In this document: positions 955-46,905 of the stretch, one piece after another
Layout: every line of letters starts with the position of its first letter
Numbering within the stretch: the first letter of the stretch is position 1
Assembly (NCBI GenBank): GCA_964016885.1
Contig: OZ024763.1
Location: forward strand, 21,452,001-21,516,000
Origin: Eledone cirrhosa
Lineage: Eukaryota
Reading direction: 5' to 3'
DNA length: 64,000 nucleotides
Position numbers and translations under genes: made by a program
The notes under the pieces: model-generated
Database searches by the model: none
What the model saw: the letters and a program-made list of their open reading frames with translations, nothing else
What the model was told of the DNA's origin: nothing

Positions 955-3900
955 ATGTGTAAGGTATACACTATATATGTATGTGTGTAAGGTATACACT
1001 ATATATGTATGTGTGTAAGGTATACACTATATATGTATGTGTGTAAGGTATACACTATATATGTATGTGTGTAAGGTATACACTATATATGTATGTGTGT
1101 AAGGTATACATTATATGTATGTGTGTAAGGTATACACTATATATGTATGTGTGTAAGGTATACACTATATATGTATGTGTGTAAGGTATGCACTATATAT
1201 GTATATGTGTAAGGTATACACTATATATGTATGTGTGTAAGGTATATACTATATATGTGTGTATGTAAGGTATACACTATATATGTATGTATGTAAGGTA
1301 TACACTATATATGTATGTGTAAGGCATATACTATATATGTATGTGTGTAAGGTATATACTATATATGTATGTGTGTAAGGTATACACTATATATGTATGT
1401 GTGTAAGGTATACACTATATATGTATGTGTGTAAGGTATACACTATATATGTATGTGTGTAAGGTATACACTATATATGTATGTGTGTAAGGTATACACT
1501 ATATATGTATGTGTGTAAGGTATACACTATATATGTATGTGTGTAAGGTATACACTATATATGTATGTGTGTAAGGTATACACTATATATGTATGTGTGT
1601 AAGGTATGCACTATATATGTATGTGTAATGTATGCACTATATATGTATGTGTGTAAGGTATATACTATATATGTATGTATGTAAGGTATACACTATAAAT
1701 GTATGTGTGTAAGGTATACACTATATATATATATGTGTAAGGTATACACTATATATGTATGTGTAAGGTATACACTATATATGTATGTGTGTAAGGTATA
1801 TACTATATATGTGTGTGTGTAAGGTATATACTATATATGTATGTGTGTAAGGTATACACTATATATGTATGTATGTAAGGTATATACTATATATGTATGT
1901 GTGTAAGGTATACACTATATATGTATGTATGTAAGGTATACACTATATATGTGTGTGTGTAAGGTATACACTATATATGTATGTGTGTAAGGTATACACT
2001 ATATATGTATGTATGTAACGTATACACTATATATGTATGTGTGTAAGGTATACACTATATATGTATGTATGTAACGTATACACTATATATGTATGTGTGT
2101 AAGGTATACACTATATATGTATGTATGTAAGGTATACACTATATATGTATGTGTGTAAGGTATACACTATATATATATGTATGGATGTAAGGTATATACT
2201 ATATATGTATGTGTGTAAGGTATACACTATATATGTATGTGTGTAAGGTATACACTATATATGTATGTATGTAAGGTATACACTATATATGTATGTGTGT
2301 AAGGTATACACTATATATGTATGTGTGTAAGGTATACACTATATATGTATGTGTGTAAGGTATACACTATATATGTATGTGTGTAAGGTATACACTATAT
2401 ATGTATGTGTGTAAGGTATACACTATATATGTATGTGTGTAAGGTATACACTATATATGTATGTGTGTAAGGTATACACTATATATGTATATGTGTAAGG
2501 TATATACTATATATGTATATGTGTAAGGTATATACTATATATGTATATGTGTAAGGTATACACTATATATGTATGTATGTAAGGTATACACTATATATGT
2601 ATGTGTGTAAGGTATATACTATATATGTATGTGTGTAAGGTATACACTATATATGTATGTATGTAAGGTATATACTATATATGTATGTGTGTAAGGTATA
2701 CGCTATATATGTATGTGTGTAAGGTATACACTATATATGTATGTGTGTAAGGTATATACTATATATGTATGTGTGTAAGGTATGCACTATATATATATGT
2801 ATGTAAGGTATACACTATATATGTATGTGTGTAAGGTATACACTATATATGTATGTGTGTAAGGTATGCACTATATATGTATGTGTGTAAGGTATATACT
2901 ATATATGTATGTGTGTAAGGTATGCACTATATATGTATGTGTGTAAGGTATGCACTATATATGTATGTGTGTAAGGTATACACTATATATGTATGTGTGT
3001 AAGGTATATACTATATATGTATGTGTGTAAGGTATATACTATATATGTATGTGTGTAAAGTATACACTATATATGTGTGTAAGGTATACACTATATATGT
3101 ATGTGTGTAAGGTATACACTATATATGTATGTGTGTAAGGTATACACTATATATGTATGTGTGTAAGGTATGCACTATATATGTATGTGTGTAAGGTATA
3201 CACTATATATATGTGTAAGGTATACACTATATATGTATGTGTGTAAGGTATACACTATATATGTATGTGTGTAAGGTATATACTATATATGTATGTGTGT
3301 AAGGTATGCACTATATATGTATATGTGTAAGGTATACACTATATATGTATGTGTGTAAGGTATGCACTATATATGTATGTAAGGTATATACTATATATAT
3401 ATGTGTGTAAGGTATATACTATATATGTATGTGTGTAAGGTATACACTATATATGTATGTGTGTAAGGTATACACTATATATGTATGTGTGTAAGGTATA
3501 TACTATATATGTATGTATGTAAGGTATACACTATATATGTATGTATGGAAGGTATACACTATATATGTATGTATGTAAGGTATACACTATATATGTATGT
3601 GTGTAAGGTATACACTATATAAGTATGTGTGTAAGGTATATACTATATATGTATGTGTGTAAGGTATACACTATATATATATATGTGTAAGGTATACACT
3701 ATATATGTGTGTGTGTGTAAGGTATACACTATATATGTGTGTGTGTAAGGTATACATTATATATGTATGTGTGTAAGGTATACACTATATATGTATGTGT
3801 GTAAGGTATGCACTATATATGTATGTGTAAGGTATACACTATATATGTATGTGTGTAAGGTATATACTATATATGTGTGTAAGGTATACACTATATATGT

Positions 3901-6900
3901 ATGTGTGTAAGGTATACACTATATATGTATGTGTGTAAGGTATACACTATATATGTATGTGTGTAAGGTATACACTATATATGTATGTGTGTAAGGTATA
4001 CACTATATATATATGTGTGTAAGGTATACACTATATATGTATGTGTGTAAGGTATATACTATATATGTATGTGTGTATGGTATATACTATATATGTGTGT
4101 AAGGTATACACTATATATGTATGTGTGTAAGGTATATACTATATATGTGTGTAAGGTATACACTATATATGTATGTGTGTAAGGTATATACTATATATGT
4201 GTGTAAGGTATACACTATATATGTATGTGTGTAAGGTATATACTATATATGTGTGTAAGGTATATACTATATATGTGTGTAAGGTATACACTATATAGGT
4301 ATGTGTGTAAGGTATACACTATATATGTATGTGTGTAAGGTATATACTATATATGTGTGTAAGGTATACACTATATATGTATGTGTGTAAGGTATATACT
4401 ATATATGTATGTGTGTAAGGTATACACTATATATGTATGTGTGTAAGGTATACACTATATATGTATGTGTCTAAGGTATATACTATATATGTATGTGTGT
4501 AAGGTATGCACTATATATGTATGTGTGTAAGGTATACACTATATATGTATGTATGGATGTAAGGTATATACTATATATGTATGTGTGTAAGGTATACACT
4601 ATATATGTATGTGTGTAAGGTATATACTATATATGTATGTGTTTAAGGTATACACTATATATGTATGTGTGTAAGGTATATACTATGTATGTATGTAAGG
4701 TATACACTATATATGTATGTGTGTAAGGTATATACTATATATGTATGTGTGTAAGTTATACACTATATATGTATGTGTGTAAGGTATACACTATATATGT
4801 ATGTGTGTAAGGTATATACTATGTATGTATGTAAGGTATACACTATATATGTATGTGTGTAAGGTATATACTATATATGTATGTGTGTAAGTTATACACT
4901 ATATATGTATGTGTGTAAGGTATACACTATATATGTATGTGTGTAAGGTATATACTATATATGTACGTGTGTAAGGTATACACTATATATGTATGTGTGT
5001 AAGGTATACACTATGTATGTGTGTAAGGTATACACTATATATGTATGTGTGTAAGGTATACACTATATATGTATGTGTGTAAGGTATATACTATATATGT
5101 GTGTAAGATATATACTATATATGTGTGTAAGGTATACACTATATATGTATGTGTGTAAGGTATACACTATATATGTATGTGTGTAAGGTATATACTATAT
5201 ATGTATGTGTGTAAGGTATACACTATATATGTATGTGTGTAAGGTATACACTATATATGTATGTAAGGTATACACTATATATGTATGTGTGTAAGGTATA
5301 TACTATATATGTATGTGTGTAAGGTATATACTATATATGTATGTGTGTAAGGTATACACTATATATGTATGTGTGTAAGGTATATACTATATATGTATGT
5401 GTGTAAGGTATACACTATATATGTATGTGTGTAAGGTATATATTATATATGTATGTATGTAAGGTATACACTATATATGTATATGTGTAAGGTATATACT
5501 ATATATGTGTGTAAGGTATACACTATATATGTATGGGTGTAAGGTATACACTATATGTGTATGTGTGTAAGGTATACACTATATATGTATGTGTGTAAGA
5601 TATATACTATATATGTATGTGTGTAAGGTATACACTATATATGTATGTGTGTAAGGTATACACTATATATGTATGTGTGTAAGATATATACTATATATGT
5701 ATGTGTGTAAGGTATGCACTATATATGTATGTGTGTAAGGTATACACTATATATGTATGTGTGTAAGGTATACACTATATATATATATATGTGTAAGGTA
5801 TACACTATATATGTATGTGTGTAAGGTATACACTATATATGTATGTGTGTAAGGTATACACTATATATGTATGTGTTGAAGGTATACACTATATATGTAT
5901 GTGTGTAAGGTATACACTATATATGTATGTGTGTAAGGTATACACTATATATGTATGTGTGTAAGGTATACACTATATATGTATGTGTGTAAGGTATATA
6001 CTATATATGTATATGTGTAAGGTATACACTATATATGTATGTGTGTAAGGTATACACTATATATGTATGTGTAAGGTATATACTATATATGTATGTGTGT
6101 AAGGTATATACTATATATGTATGTGTGTAAGGTATACACTATATATATATGTATGTAAGGCATACACTATATATGTATGTGTGTCAGGTATACACTATAT
6201 ATGTATGTGTGTAAGGTATACACTATATATGTATGTGTAAGGTATATACTATATATGTATGTGTGTAAGGTATAAACTATATATATATGTGTGTAAGGTA
6301 TACACTATATATGTATGTATGTAAGGTATACACTATATATGTATGTGTGTAAGGTATACACTATATATGTATGTGTGTAAGGTATACACTATATATGTAT
6401 GTGTGTAAGGTATACACTATATATGTATGTATGTAAGGTATACACTATATATGTATATGTGTAAGGTATACACTATATATGTATGTGTGTAAGGTATACA
6501 CTATATATGTATGTGTGTAAGGTATACACTATATATGTATGTGTGTAAGGTATGCACTATATATGTATGTATGTAAGGTATATACTATATATGTATGTGT
6601 GTAAGGTATACACTATATATGTATGTGTGTAAGGTATATACTATATATGTGTGTGTAAGGTATACACTATATATGTATGTATGTAAGGTATACACTATAT
6701 ATGTATGTGTGTAAGGTATACACTATATATGTGTGTAAGGTATACACTATATATGTATGTGTGTAAGGTATACACTATATATGTATGTGTGTAAGGTATA
6801 CACTATATATGTGTGTAAGGTATACACTATATATGTATGTGTGTAAGGTATGCACTATATATGTATGTGTGTAAGGTATACACTATATATGTATGTGTGT

Positions 6901-9234
6901 AAGGTATACACTATATATGTATGTGTGTAAGGTATATACTATATATGTGTGTAAGGTATACAATATATATGAATGTGTGTAAGGTACGCACTATATATGT
7001 ATGTGTGTAAGGTATGCACTATATATGTATGTGTGTAAGGTATACACTATATATGTATGTATGTAAGGTATACACTATATATGTATGTGTGTAAGGTATA
7101 CACTATATATGTGTGTAAGGTATACACTATATATGTATGTGTGTAAGGTATGCACTATATATGTATGTGTGTAAGGTATACACTATATATGTATGTATGT
7201 ATGTAAGGTATACACTATATATGTGTGTGTGTAAGGTATATACTATATATGTATGCGTGTAAGGTATACACTATATATGTATGTATGTAAGGTATATACT
7301 ATATATGTATGTGTGTAAGGTATATACTATATATGTATGTGTGTAAGGTATATACTATATATGTATGTGTGTAAGGTATACACTATATATGTATGTAAGG
7401 TATACACTATATATGTATGTGTGTAAGGTATACACTATATATGTATGTGTGTAAGGTATACACTATATATGTATGTGTGTAAGGTATATACTATATATGT
7501 ATGTATGTAAGGTATACACTATATATGTATGTATGTAAGGTATACACTATATATGTATGTATGTAAGGTATACACTATATATGTGTGTGTGTAAGGTATA
7601 TACTATATATGTATGTGTGTAAGGTATACACTATATATGTATGTGTGTAAGGTATACACTATATATGTATGTGTGTAAGGTATATACTATATATGTATGT
7701 GTGTAAGGTATATACTATATATGTATGTGTGTAAGGTATACACTATATATGTATGTGTGTAAGGTATATATTATATATGTATGTGTGTAAGGTATATACT
7801 ATATATGTATGTGTGTAAGGTATACACTATATATGTATGTGTGTAAGGTATACACTATATATGTATGTGTGTAAGGTATACACTATATATGTATGTGTGT
7901 AAGGTATACACTATATATGTATGTGTGTAAGGTATATACTATATATGTATGTGTGTAAGGTATACACTATATATGTATGTATGTAAGGTATGCACTATAT
8001 ATGTATGTACGTATGTAAGGTATGCACTATATATGTATGTACGTATGTAAGGTATACACTATATATGTATGTATGTAAGGTATACACTATATATGTATGT
8101 GTGTAAGGTACACACTATATATGTATGTATGTAAGGTATACACTATATATGTATGTATGTAAGGTATGCACTATATATGTATGTATGTAAGGTATGCACT
8201 ATATATGTATGTGTGTAAGGTACACACTATATATGTATGTGTGTAAGGTATACACTATATATGTATGTGTGTAAGGTACACACTATATATGTATGTGTGT
8301 AAGGTACACACTATATATGTATGTGTGTAAGGTATACACTATATATGTATGTGTGTAAGGTATACACTATATATGTATGTGTGTAAGGTATAAACTATAT
8401 ATGTATGTGTGTAAGGTATATACTATATATGTATGTGTGTAAGGTATATACTATATATATGTATGTGTAAGGTATACACTATATATGTATGTGTGTAAGG
8501 TATACACTATATATGTATGTGTGTAAGGTATACACTATATATGTATGTGTGTAAGGTATACACTATATATGTATATGTGTAAGGTATACACTATATATGT
8601 GTGTAAGGTATACACTATATATGTGTGTAAGGTATGCACTATATATGTATGTGTGTAAGGTATATACTATATATGTATGTGTGTAAGGTATACACTATAT
8701 ATGTATGTGTGTAAGGTATGCACTATATATGTATGTGTGTAAGGTATACACTATATATGTATGTGTGTAAGGTATGCACTATATATGTATGTGTGTAAGG
8801 TATACACTATATATGTATGTGTGTAAGGTATACACTATATATGTATGTGTGTAAGGTATACACTATATATGTATGTGTAAGGTATACACTATATATGTAT
8901 GTGTAAGGTATACACTATATATGTATGTGTGTAAGGTATATACTATATATGTATGTGTGTAAGGTATGCACTATATATGTATGTGTGTAAGGTATACACT
9001 ATATATGTATATGTGTAAGGTATACACTATATATGTATGTGTGTAAGGTATACACTATATATGTATGTGTGTAAGGTTTACACTATATATGTATGTGTGT
9101 AAGGTATGCACTATATATATGTATGTGTGTAAGGTATACACTATATATGTATGTGTGTAAGGTATAAACTATATATGTATGTGTGTAAGGTATACACTAT
9201 ATATGTATGTGTGTAAGGTATGCACTATATATGT
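955..9234. repeat. 28-bp satellite array, about 300 units, consensus AAGGTATACACTATATATGTATGTGTGT
   Basis: Direct tandem periodicity of 28 bp with 24/26/30/32-bp slippage variants and TATACAC/TATATAC/TATGCAC variants. No ORF in the track. Confidence 0.98.
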
Positions 9235-9235
9235 A

Positions 9236-20847: not shown

Positions 20848-20900
<53 letters not shown>

Positions 20901-21057
20901 TTTGATAAAAAGAACAGGAGGTCGGACTGGTGATATTCTTTAAAGTAGTTTTATTGTTGTAAAAACACTATAGATATTTCAATGGCCTGGTTATGTAAGG
21001 TCCTGGTGACATCATCAGGTGTGGATTGCATATAATCCCTATATATATATATATATC

Positions 21058-21380
21058 TATCATCATCATCATCATCATCATCATTTTACGTCTACTTTTC
21101 CCTGCTTGCAAGGGTGGACGGGCCCTCATCAGCACAGCATCTCTCTCCATTCGTCACGGTCCTTCGTCATCTCCTCTGTGTGCTTCAGCGATCTGAGGTC
21201 TGCTCTCACCACCTCCACCCATGTTTTTCGTGGTCTACTGCGTCTTCCTTCTACTGGGATTTCTTGGCACTTCTTTACCCAGCGGGCATCCTCCATGTAC
21301 ATCTCATGTCCATACCAACGCAGTCTTCTATCCCACACACTACAGCTTATCCCTCTTATACACAGTTTCTCTCTCAACTT
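21058..21380 (-). mobile_element. RTE LINE 3' fragment with (GAT)n tail
   Basis: RRLRWYGH...VEGRRSRPRKTWVEVVRADL...DRDEWR (ORF 21129-21377), short 3' UTR, microsatellite tail. Confidence 0.9.
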
Positions 21381-21401
21381 GTCTATATATATATATATAT
21401 A

Positions 21402-21700
21402 TGTAGGAGGTGAGTTTTATTGTAGTACAATAAAGCAATGCAGATATCGGATAAGAAGCACTCTACAGTTTGTAGGACTGGAGTATAAATAATATATAAG
21501 ATCAAAAGATGGTTAAAAGAGTTCCATATGTTGATTTAAAACTGCACTATTCACAAGTGTGTTTTAACCTTCATATCATGTCTCCCTATTTTATCTGACG
21601 AAAACGCAAATGTTATTGCATGATGATATTTGTTTTTGAAATGCGCATAATAAAATACATGGAACTTTTTTAACCATCTTTTGATCTTATATATTATATT
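21402..21700 (+). mobile_element. Penelope-like non-autonomous hairpin element (family H1) in (TA)n
   Basis: About 88-bp unique tail, inverted arms (about 21490-21531 / 21657-21700) enclosing a hammerhead. Second copy at 41692-41980. Confidence 0.7.
21587..21657 (+). ncRNA. type I hammerhead ribozyme (intact core)
   Basis: Stem I TATTTTAT/ATAAAATA, CTGACGA, long stem II 21602-21637, GAAA, palindromic stem III TGCGCA, predicted AUA cleavage after 21649. Confidence 0.85.
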
Positions 21701-21829
21701 ATATATATATATATATATACACACACTTATCTCTCTTATACACAGTTTCTCTCTCAACTCTCTCTATATCTATATACACACTTATCCCTCTTACACAGTT
21801 TCTCTCACAACTCGTCTACATATATAACA

Positions 21830-22022
21830 CGGTAAAAAGCACCCAGTCCACACTGTAAATGTGGTTGGTGTTAAGAAGGGCATCCAGCCATAGAAAACCT
21901 GCCAGACGGTCCTATACGAGCGAGACACGGTCACCCACTTGCCTCAAGTGGGACAATTCCTGTCTAACCCATGCTAGTGTAGAAGATAGACATTAAACGA
22001 TGATGATGATGAAGATGATGAT
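21830..22022 (+). mobile_element. RTE 3' UTR fragment with (GAT)n tail
   Basis: GGTTGGTGTTAAGAAGGGCATCCAGCC...AACCCATGCTAG...GACATTAAACGATGATG. Matches 62920-63108. Confidence 0.75.
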
Positions 22023-26292: not shown

Positions 26293-26977
26293 TTTCGTTT
26301 CTGAATTTGTTTAGCAAGATTCTTTATCTGAAATCGTGTGTTGAAACCGATATTGTTATACTTTGGGAGGGTCATGTTGCCAATAAGAACATAGAAATAA
26401 AAATAGAATCCACACACAGAAAAGATGCAATGTTTAGGCAAATTACAGAGGCAGTAAGCATAAAAGAATTACAACCAAAATTAAATAGAAAATATGAGTG
26501 GAACAGCAACATCACAACTTACAATTAAGGACAAAATGAAAACACACACAGGACAAAATGAAAACACACACACACATAGAACAAACAACCAACCAACAAT
26601 AAATAAATAAATAAATAAACAAATAGATAAATGAACACAAACACACACAGACACCCGGATGTGGCGCATGCGCAAACTGAGCACACAACACACACACAGA
26701 AACAAAATAGTGTAGGATAGAAGAAAGGAAAGGCACAGAAACAAAGAAAGGAATCCCCAGTCACTGAAGAGGTCACAGAGTGTGTGACGAAAGGACTATG
26801 ACTATATATAAACAACTATCTGGTTGTGGAACCAACCAACTAACCAGAAATTTATAAGTTTGTAAGTTTGTAAATTTGTAAATTTATAAATTTATAAATA
26901 TATAATAAATTGAAGTGAAAGCAACTGGTGCGTGTGTTTCTTATTGGCAACATGACCCTCCCAAAGTATAACAATAT
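26293..26977 (+). mobile_element. 5'-truncated Penelope-like element (GIY-YIG C-terminus + pLTR with hammerhead + inverted 5' arm)
   Basis: FRQITEAVSIKELQPKLNRKYEW (26389-26528) fits the PLE GIY-YIG C-terminal RxxxEAxxIxxxxPxLN motif. 40-bp inverted arms 26350-26389 / 26938-26977, 57-nt extension on the inverted arm, (TA)n flanks. Confidence 0.85.
26759..26803 (+). ncRNA. minimal type I hammerhead ribozyme in PLE pLTR
   Basis: AGTCA-CTGAAGA-G-GTCAC(agagtgt)GTGAC-GAAA-GGAC-TA-TGACT. Predicted CUA cleavage after 26798. Confidence 0.75.
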
Positions 26978-28439: not shown

Positions 28440-28590
28440 TTCTGTATCTCCTTGGTGATCCTGTCTCTAATTTTGTACCCCTGAAGAAGGGATAAACCCC
28501 GAGACGTTGAACATTCTTTCCCCTTTTCCATAGAAAGCATGAAACTAATAAGACTTTTTGTACCTCTGTTGTGTCTTTTCCTTGAACTAT
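28440..28590 (+). mobile_element. old PLE-like fragment with decayed hammerhead
   Basis: CTGAAGA-AGGGATAAACCCC-GAGA-CG-TT at 28481-28508. Second copy 32098-32242 (CTGAAGA-AGGACTAAAGCCT-GACA-TG-TC). Confidence 0.45.
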
Positions 28591-29232: not shown

Positions 29233-29274
29233 GTACATGCACACACACACATATATATATTTATATATATATAT

Positions 29275-29942
29275 AGAATAAGAAAATGCAAAGTAGTTTC
29301 AGAAGTCTGTTATTAATAAGGCTGTGATATATATTTCAATGACAACAGTGGTCACATGATTCTGTGTCCTAGTGCCGTGATCTCATCAGACAGCTTCTTA
29401 CATAATAAGGTTACGTTCCCGAGGCAATCCAAGTTGAAACGACAGAAAAAGAGGGTGTTCTTGAATCCTTCACCCATTCCCTTGTATATATATATAATTG
29501 GATACTTAGTAAAATCGAATCTCTGGCGGTGTGCAAGCAAATTCGGCCTACTATGTGAATGAGTTAGCAAAGTACTCGACAAGGTAGGTCCTCAGAGTAA
29601 TAACATACGTTTAAATAGCTTGACAAATTGAACATTGTGGTAGGCAAAATCTAACACACAATATACCAAAGTTACGAAAGAACTAACAGGTTGAGAAAAA
29701 TACACCTGGACAAATCAAACGTTATACGTTTAAAGTGTTTCTATGAATCCAAAATCAAATATCAGACTTATGTAACTGGTAAGCTCGTGGTATTCATGAT
29801 CAAACAGAGGATTCAGTTCATCAACAAGTTTTCGTTCTACCAAAGAACGGGCCGAGAAGCTAAATGTTACCGCTAGGTGCAGCATATCGTATATATAGTT
29901 GTCACGTGTTATTTCCAGCAAGGGAAATAACCCCCGGTTTTT
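29275..29942 (-). mobile_element. Penelope-like element 3' remnant
   Basis: RSLVERKLVDELNPLFD (ORF 29730-29969) resembles the PLE GIY-YIG C-terminal motif. An intact hammerhead lies downstream on the same strand. Confidence 0.6.
29321..29394 (-). ncRNA. type I hammerhead ribozyme (intact core, long stem II)
   Basis: Minus strand GCTGT-CTGATGA-[45-nt imperfect stem II]-GAAA-TATATA-TC-ACAGC. AUC cleavage triplet at 29328-29326. Confidence 0.8.
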
Positions 29943-41509: not shown

Positions 41510-41604
41510 ATCATCATCATCATTTTATGTCCGCTTGCAAGGGTGGGACAGGTCCTATTCAGCACAGCATCTCTCCACTTGTCACGGTCCTTCGTCATCT
41601 CCTT
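41510..41604 (-). mobile_element. RTE 3' terminal fragment (same family as 21058-21380)
   Basis: CAGCACAGCATCTCTC...GTCACGGTCCTTCGTCATCTCC shared. Confidence 0.8.
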
Positions 41605-41637: not shown

Positions 41638-42577
<940 letters not shown>

Positions 42578-45780: not shown

Positions 45781-46905
45781 TTTCTTTATTAGCCACAGGG
45801 GCACAAAAGAAGGGGACAAATACAAAGGGGGAAGTTTACATACAATAAAAACGTGTAAAATGTTATCACAAATGCAATTTAAAAAGTTAGTTGATTTTCC
45901 CCAATAGGGGGAGACAGTTCATATGGGTAACACATAGCCCCGAAAAAACTCCAGGAGTACGAAGAGTTTGTACTCCTTTCCTCTCCTCCTCCTTTTCCTC
46001 AACCTACAGGCTGATATAGAGAGAAGGCCCATTCACTCGGCCCATTCTCGCCACTTTCACCCACCTTTCATAAAACTTGCTGGGGTACAGCACCTCTCTC
46101 TCCATCCTGATTCTTCTTCCAAAGTGGTATTTGAAAAAAAGAATCAGTTGTTGGCCGGAGAGAAAGGTGTCTGACCTCAGCCCTTTCAACCTTGTCCACC
46201 ATACAACCTCTTTCACCATAGCTATCACACAAAGGAAAACCGCCTCTCATTCGTTTTTGAAGGAGGGTGGCAGTTTGATCATGACAATGGACTCGGTGGT
46301 CAACCGGATTGGTCCCACCCGCGACAATAGTCGTTCTACATAGCCCCACAGGTCAGTGACGTCCGGGCAGTGTATGAATGCGTGCGCGACGGTTTCTTCT
46401 TTACGCATGCACCTCGGACAGATCTTTTTTGCAGGGTCCCTGCTCGGGCGCCCATGTCTGTAGAGCTTGTCTCGAACTGGTAGAGCTCCTCGGTAGCACT
46501 GCCAGGCCAGGGACTTTTGGAAGTTGTCCATCGGTCCCAGGCGGAAGGTCCTACCGAACAGACTGGCCAGTTCATCTTCCTCTACGCCTAGAGTTTCACC
46601 GAGCGCGTCGTCGCACTTGCTGCGGATCAACCCTCTATAGAATGACGAAGTGGAGTCTCCACTGATCCCCGGGTCCGCCTGCCAGAGGGCTGTGAGCCCC
46701 TGAGCACATTCGATGTGCCAGTCGCCCGTTTTCCTCGGTCTTTGCTTGACCCAGGACTGCAGCTCAGTCAGCGAGACGAGTCGTGGGAAGGCTCGCCTCA
46801 CGAACGGGGCCCACACCGGTTGTCCGGTGAGGAATACGTAGAGATGCCGCAGCCTGAGCGCGTGTTTGCGCATCGTCAACCACGGCATCCCAGCCCTCCG
46901 TTAGA
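45781..46905 (-). mobile_element. Tx1/L1-clade LINE 3' fragment (zf-RVT region), frameshifted
   Basis: ORF 46247-46888 with LAWQCYRGALPVRDKL and CCHC finger CPRC..EETVAHAFIHC. Continues in ORF 46004-46228 (KEVVWWTR). AATAAA near the 3' end; GC-rich relative to flanks. Confidence 0.9.

Follow-up and report, generated by a model that had tools for sequence, protein, structure and literature searches.

Head-to-head solo ends of a probable Penelope-like family with a predicted hammerhead motif in (TA)n tracts of Eledone cirrhosa

An element of about 300 bp occurs in two copies in the window, the whole stretch of 64,000 nucleotides of Eledone cirrhosa DNA that was analysed, and each copy is probably a head-to-head pair of 5'-truncated pseudo-LTRs (pLTRs) of one high-copy Penelope-like (PLE) family, assembled anew at each (TA)n insertion and carrying a predicted hammerhead inherited from the parent. 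Summed over the mechanisms considered below, it is highly likely that the element works like a PLE end. Its membership among PLEs is suggested by architecture, no RT or GIY-YIG ORF having been found among the 10 window ORFs tested by Pfam (10 of the 105 listed), and we infer that PLE proteins mobilise it, as a sequence-only reading of the window had proposed.

That reading had placed two copies with nearly the same boundaries in the window, which is borne out; their positions were verified, 21402 being the counterpart of 41694, and blast of the window found these two copies only (Table 1). The copies align with 271 of 287 bases identical, 16 substitutions and one 9-nt gap, which sits at the inner junction and is bounded by GTT (blast identity 91.6%). 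The window is AT-rich and full of microsatellites, and both copies are embedded in (TA)n. Copy 1 occupies the first TA spacer of a 55-bp tandem repeat (21710-21830) that consists of the truncated end of an RTE-like fragment plus TA/CA. The sense copy and the inverted arm share a 3-nt microhomology at 21525-21527 in copy 1 and 41813-41815 in copy 2, and the inner end of the inverted arm lies 10 nt and about 14 nt, respectively, past the predicted cleavage site. The sense pLTR of copy 1 is likely to begin at an RNA 5' end.

Table 1. Parts of the two element copies and their neighbours in the window
Feature	Position	Strand	Basis or remark
(TA)n target tract, left of copy 1	21384..21401	.	sequence
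Copy 1 tail, extending the inverted copy 3' by 82-87 nt	21402..21488	-	in X2, X4 and X21, (TA)n follows on tail-less ends at 21484
Palindrome in copy 1 tail, AATAAA on both strands	21416-21434		
Copy 1 inverted arm, shorter second copy of the pLTR 3' end	21489..21527	-	38/39 complementary to 21659-21697
Copy 1 sense solo pLTR, about 172 nt, tail-less	21526..21697	+	11/15 listed junctions enter at 21525-21530; native upstream loose ends
Copy 1 type I hammerhead motif, predicted cut after 21649	21587..21657	+	
(TA)n target tract, right of copy 1, within 55-bp local tandem repeat	21698..21720	.	
(TA)n target tract, left of copy 2	41668..41693	.	
Copy 2 tail	41694..41780	-	
Copy 2 inverted arm	41781..41815	-	35/35 complementary to 41946-41980
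Copy 2 sense solo pLTR, tail-less	41813..41980	+	
Copy 2 type I hammerhead motif, predicted cut after 41932	41870..41940	+	
Long (TA)n tract, right of copy 2	41981..42213	.	
RTE-like 3' fragment, left of each element copy	21075-21383 and 41512-41603		identified by eye from translation; no Pfam match

The hammerhead motifs are of type I, with cores beginning at 21595 in copy 1 and at 41878 in copy 2. Their 8-bp stem I and long stem II, noted earlier from the sequence, were found again, stem II comprising 15 pairs in 16 positions with one C-U mismatch, and helix III is an 8-nt palindrome (21641-21648 in copy 1). A descriptor scan gave 4 matches in the window vs 0.02 per window over 100 Markov-shuffled windows, and none of the matches in shuffled windows was as strong as the hammerheads of the two copies. 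Rfam returned no hammerhead at gathering score across the window and none at E<=10 on copy 1, and the long stem II may be beyond the reach of its models; a miRNA-like Rfam match was rejected as merely the arm hairpin. In silico, the dimer paired through the palindrome is favoured (-35.9 vs 2 x -11.3 kcal/mol), and the hammerhead is predicted to work as a dimer through palindromic helix III. The strong fold z-scores of the copies (-7.2 and -5.8) are due to the arms, falling to -1.15 and +0.2 without the inverted arm. A candidate hairpin at a structured 5' end (21526-21581, z -2.3) was dropped, as it is broken by 5 of 7 paired family variants.

Variation within the family bears on the same motif. 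Among 40 of the 50 variants of the family, which were those listed, 8 of 9 helix variants keep the hammerhead pairing (P = 0.002-0.003 if transitions are weighted 4:1, and 0.035-0.06 if they alone are allowed), the ninth could form a canonical G-C if in phase with another variant, and the 18 core and palindrome positions show no variant (Fisher 0.014). All listed helix changes are one-sided. A-to-I editing was considered as a source of the A/G helix changes, for A/G stands opposite U in 6 of the 9 helix variants, but two U-G>C-G repairs are not of the editing type. Taken as sequence evidence, this conservation points to selection on the predicted ribozyme in active parents. The differences between the two copies had been described as covarying helices that keep the structure; the change at N7 and the three changes in stem II are confirmed, but each of those in stem II is a wobble change on one side of the helix and not two-sided covariation.

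To place the copies within their family, we turn to 23 listed sequencing runs, none of them an RNA run, of which 19 hold the stretch or part of it and 13, under nine organism labels, hold at least 23% of its words. Four of the runs (X2, X4, X7 and X21) were compared with 21360-21740, X4 and X7 being from other organisms than X2 and X21 consisting of RAD-seq reads that may stem from few loci; the runs left out of this comparison include six with a small share and one with none. Matches were found in 4,044 contigs of X2, 61 contigs of X4, 33 contigs of X7 and 4,782 reads of X21. The family is plainly high-copy, with a summed word depth in X2 of 0.2-1.9 million per bin vs 24-154 for single junction contigs, where depth is not to be read as copy number. 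Exact patterns had no match in metagenome, prokaryote or viral contigs, and a degenerate hammerhead pattern met 181 loci, none of them related by blastn at E<1e-3.

The runs also reveal the native order of the parts. Behind 21527, the tail and arm read on linearly into the antisense hammerhead in 22 contigs of X2, and one contig of X7 does so behind 21526; in X21, 1269 loose-end reads and 84 strand-switch reads (joint 21519>21666, 7 starts) lead into the antisense hammerhead, vs 1351 reads covering 21518. From this linear continuation it follows that hammerhead, arm and tail natively lie in this order on one strand and that the left part of the element in the window is an inverted piece. A tail-less end running into (TA)n at 21484 is present in 52 contigs of X2, 2 of X4 and 129 reads of X21, and the occurrence of both tailed and tail-less ends implies two 3' ends, 82-87 nt apart. 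A longer parent upstream of 21525 is seen in three runs and is known from 30 letters, which are nearly the same in 265 loose-end reads of X21 and in the loose end of one X7 contig (215 nt), and 29 contigs of X2 extend before 21525 with a mixed consensus. Around A21526 the parent reads TTTTC followed by ATATG, which we take to resemble a Pol II initiator; one X7 contig begins at 21526, abutting unrelated DNA.

Fifteen same-strand joints were read, 14 from a table in which 15 of 27 joints were listed and one from another table. Among these listed junctions the inverted piece ends at 13 distinct places (21432-21530) and the sense copy is entered at 21525-21530 in 11. At 8 of those 11 joints 1-4 letters fit both sides, and these are read as direct microhomology joins; joints marked 'between: not known' may conceal letters, and a reference ending at 21525-21527 could inflate both hot spots. 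A pure edge effect is made less likely by seven listed joints that enter at 21526 despite a match to the parent at 21525 as well, though the joints so marked leave doubt.

With inverted ends so varied among the listed joints and a linear parent, the composite probably lacks the unit-like mobility that the sequence-only reading had supposed. Fixed outer ends together with a near-fixed sense start make independent insertions look alike. Random breakpoints, which that reading had held to speak against its own proposal, are largely what the inverted ends present; the breakpoints are partly fixed, however, at the sense start. A fixed composite, non-autonomous and retrozyme-like RNA moving as a unit, possibly as a circle closed by selected arms, is therefore judged highly improbable: the boundaries of the two copies are similar, the hammerhead can still fold within the composite at a penalty of 1.3-2.1 kcal/mol, and at least three junctions cluster near 21523-21527, but the junction of copy 2 is absent among indels at >=5% depth, and each copy has one hammerhead with no tandem array in the window, whereas retrozymes are described as tandem in the available parts of PMC7229834 and of the preprint 10.64898/2026.07.22.740005. 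The earlier label of a retrozyme-like element is not supported.

Where the inverted copies stop may relate to the ribozyme. Inverted ends about 7-14 nt past the predicted cut make up 6 of 18 (the two window copies, three joints and one X2 loose end), and the remaining ones lie in the tail or outer arm, in a layout where inverted copies running past the cut are hard to see. One X4 loose end resembles an inverted copy passing the hammerhead, so cleavage would not always limit the inverted copy. The clustering of ends just past the predicted cut is suggestive only.

Over the shared 35 nt the arms show 1 and 0 differences within the copies vs 2 and 3 between them, which supports the proposal that arms are re-templated at insertion. 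At 21667 the right arm of copy 1 carries a minority state (94% of the family has C) and the left arm keeps the majority state, a mismatch that fits mutation after insertion. The arms would match within a copy if both were copied from one template, and the hairpin need not be under selection; of the outer-arm covariation described earlier, the closer match within copies stands, but one template for two cDNAs suffices to produce it. The tail (21402-21487 vs 41694-41779) has no substitution, all 16 falling in the remaining 201 positions (Fisher p 0.004), and 3 of 75 tail positions vary family-wide among 40 of the 50 variants. The tail is possibly a protein-binding or RT-start signal.

Identical arms with microhomology would likewise result if, with the same PLE parent, the inversion arose when a single cDNA or an antisense template primed itself or folded back, as has been put forward for head-to-head PLE junctions in the part of PMC3846280 at hand. 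We consider this unlikely, as fold-back does not readily produce one tailed and one tail-less arm, which two RT start sites do (PMC11167929, in the sections available), and as there is no palindrome at the junctions and the spacer of 40-60 nt and the hammerhead are single-copy. The 35-39-bp inverted repeats, TA flanks and terminal hairpin would also suit a DNA element (MITE, foldback or Helentron-like) with inverted repeats that had taken up a hammerhead. Such an origin is extremely unlikely, for the repeats are not both terminal, differ in length between loci and are missing in the linear form, and the combination of ragged inner ends with fixed 3' ends marks a retroelement. Inverted repeats fixed in all copies, as in MITE, foldback or Helentron-type elements, were not found, the family having linear copies and variable arms.

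We also weighed whether the two copies are independent. Each has, at a distance of 90-330 nt and in like orientation, one of the two copies of an RTE-like fragment that occurs nowhere else in the window. This pair shows 81 matches, 8 mismatches and 13 gap columns, a divergence of 8/89 that is not significantly above that of the element (Fisher p 0.32). The shared neighbour would be accounted for if both copies came from one locus, by local duplication or by co-mobilisation with the RTE-like 3' end, followed by a 9-nt microhomology deletion and later gene conversion of the arms; the compatible divergences and the inner junctions, which differ by nothing but the GTT-bounded gap, agree with this. 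However, 14 of the 16 substitutions are family variants among the 40 of 50 listed, and 12 of these, which make up 13-71% of the summed depth in X2, are polymorphic family-wide and not private. Further, the right flanks and the DNA between the RTE-like fragment and the element are unrelated between the copies, and in X2 two contigs with a loose end behind 21526 represent an independent junction at that position. An origin from one locus is hence quite improbable, and the differences would fit different subfamily templates.

Under the preferred reading of separately assembled head-to-head pLTRs, a PLE RT/GIY-YIG protein acting in trans would bind an RNA that starts at about A21526. The (TA)n target would be nicked on both strands, and each nick would prime reverse transcription from one of two internal start sites, at the arm end or at the tail end. 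One cDNA would reach the RNA 5' end and the other would stop early, sometimes just past the hammerhead cut, and the two would be joined head-to-head through a microhomology of 1-4 nt. Several of these steps have counterparts in published work, as Penelope transcripts begin inside the pLTR (PMC2377424, in the portion available), and the available sections of PMC11167929 report for an anole PLE in vitro two RT start sites, extension on both strands and a tail that is the stretch between the sites, with no need for hammerhead cutting. A further proposal, tentative and rather unlikely, is that the junctions record PLE RNA processing in vivo: an RNA of ~260 nt with an initiator-like 5' end would be a non-autonomous PLE 'SINE' with two RT starts 82-87 nt apart, and its second cDNA would often stop 7-14 nt past the cut on a template cleaved by the ribozyme. 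If true, this would be in-genome evidence that the PLE hammerhead cuts during transposition, cutting that was dispensable in an in vitro study.

Apart from these copies, the window holds several other hammerhead-like motifs and repeats. At 20899-21040 (-), 360 nt from copy 1, there is an unrelated hammerhead-like PLE-type end with AATAAA and (TA)n on both sides. A solo end in (TA)n at 29262-29490 (-) carries a hammerhead with long stem II and palindromic TATATA helix III and represents a second long-stem family, and related motifs at 26764-26803 (+) and 40915-40863 (-), 85% alike over 54 nt, form a third family. A minimal PLE-type hammerhead lies at 55895-55860 (-), and weaker core-like motifs at 28481 and 32133 (+) fall within a shared repeat. 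Besides, a 28-bp satellite of about 299 copies with 92% matches spans 956-9235, and an L1/Tx1-type LINE fragment with zf-RVT (E 1.5e-7) is present at 46247-46900 (-).

The element resembles most closely the inverted pLTRs of EN+ PLEs, for which the parts at hand of PMC3846280 (Pen2a_Av), PMC8557442 and PMC2377424 (D. virilis Penelope) describe likewise a 5'-truncated sense end, a shorter adjacent inverted copy and a tail at one end, with a pLTR of ~170-220 nt and a hammerhead in the pLTR in common. Fig. 2 of PMC8557442 draws this layout as a partial copy, an adjacent inverted 5'-truncated copy and a tail of 30-40 bp at one end. Our element accordingly has a type I hammerhead with palindromic helix III in the terminal repeat, an inverted 5'-truncated copy of variable length and an optional one-end tail; unlike the EN+ PLEs, it has no ORF between the repeats and its sense start is strongly fixed, and its tail of 82-87 nt is twice the 30-40 nt published. 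Solo pLTRs have been described together with Pen2a_Av (PMC3846280), both short insertions and non-autonomous members are on record for PLEs (PMC9977147), and solo and opposite-strand hammerheads from truncated PLEs have been described (PMC4209133), all in the portions of these texts available.

With the Hydra-clade PLEs, as covered in the available part of PMC8557442, the element has in common (TA)n targeting, a type I hammerhead near the 3' end and a short, often palindromic helix III; insertion into (TA)n is common to Hydra, Naiad and some Neptune elements and so is not diagnostic of the Hydra clade, and Naiads lack canonical hammerheads. The Hydra-1_Obim hammerhead (File S2 of PMC8557442) differs in sequence from that of the window and has a 7-bp stem II, and the window motifs were not found in the supplement of that paper. 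PLE hammerheads, in the sections at hand of PMC4209133, likewise have a type I core and a palindromic helix III predicted to pair between copies, and are mostly solo from truncated PLEs, but their stem II has 6-8 bp vs 15 bp here, their stem I 2-5 bp vs 8 bp, and they carry G-C at 10.1-11.1 where the window copies have A-U. Animal non-LTR retrozymes, as presented in the accessible parts of PMC7229834 and of the preprint 10.64898/2026.07.22.740005, are likewise short, non-coding and low in GC, with a type I hammerhead and a PLE relation, but they are head-to-tail tandems with two or more hammerheads, whereas the window element consists of dispersed head-to-head solo ends. Head-to-tail tandem units with a hammerhead are absent from the window; elsewhere in the genome they may occur.

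The feature is thus of a known kind and its family, with a long tail and a long stem II, is probably undescribed. No description of it was found in the literature, including the available portions of PMC8557442, PMC11167929, PMC4209133, PMC7229834, PMC3846280, PMC2377424, PMC9977147, PMC13282606 and the retrozyme preprint; Repbase, Dfam or the O. vulgaris repeat library (190 Penelope-like consensus families) may hold it. Most likely it is an ordinary product of Penelope-like retrotransposition, and its value is that of a test bed. The role of the PLE hammerhead and the formation of inverted pLTRs and tails are named as open questions in the parts at hand of PMC8557442 and PMC11167929, and the breakpoints in one long-read assembly could answer them, the family being short and very high in copy number, with its 5' start fixed, its cut site predicted and two kinds of 3' end.
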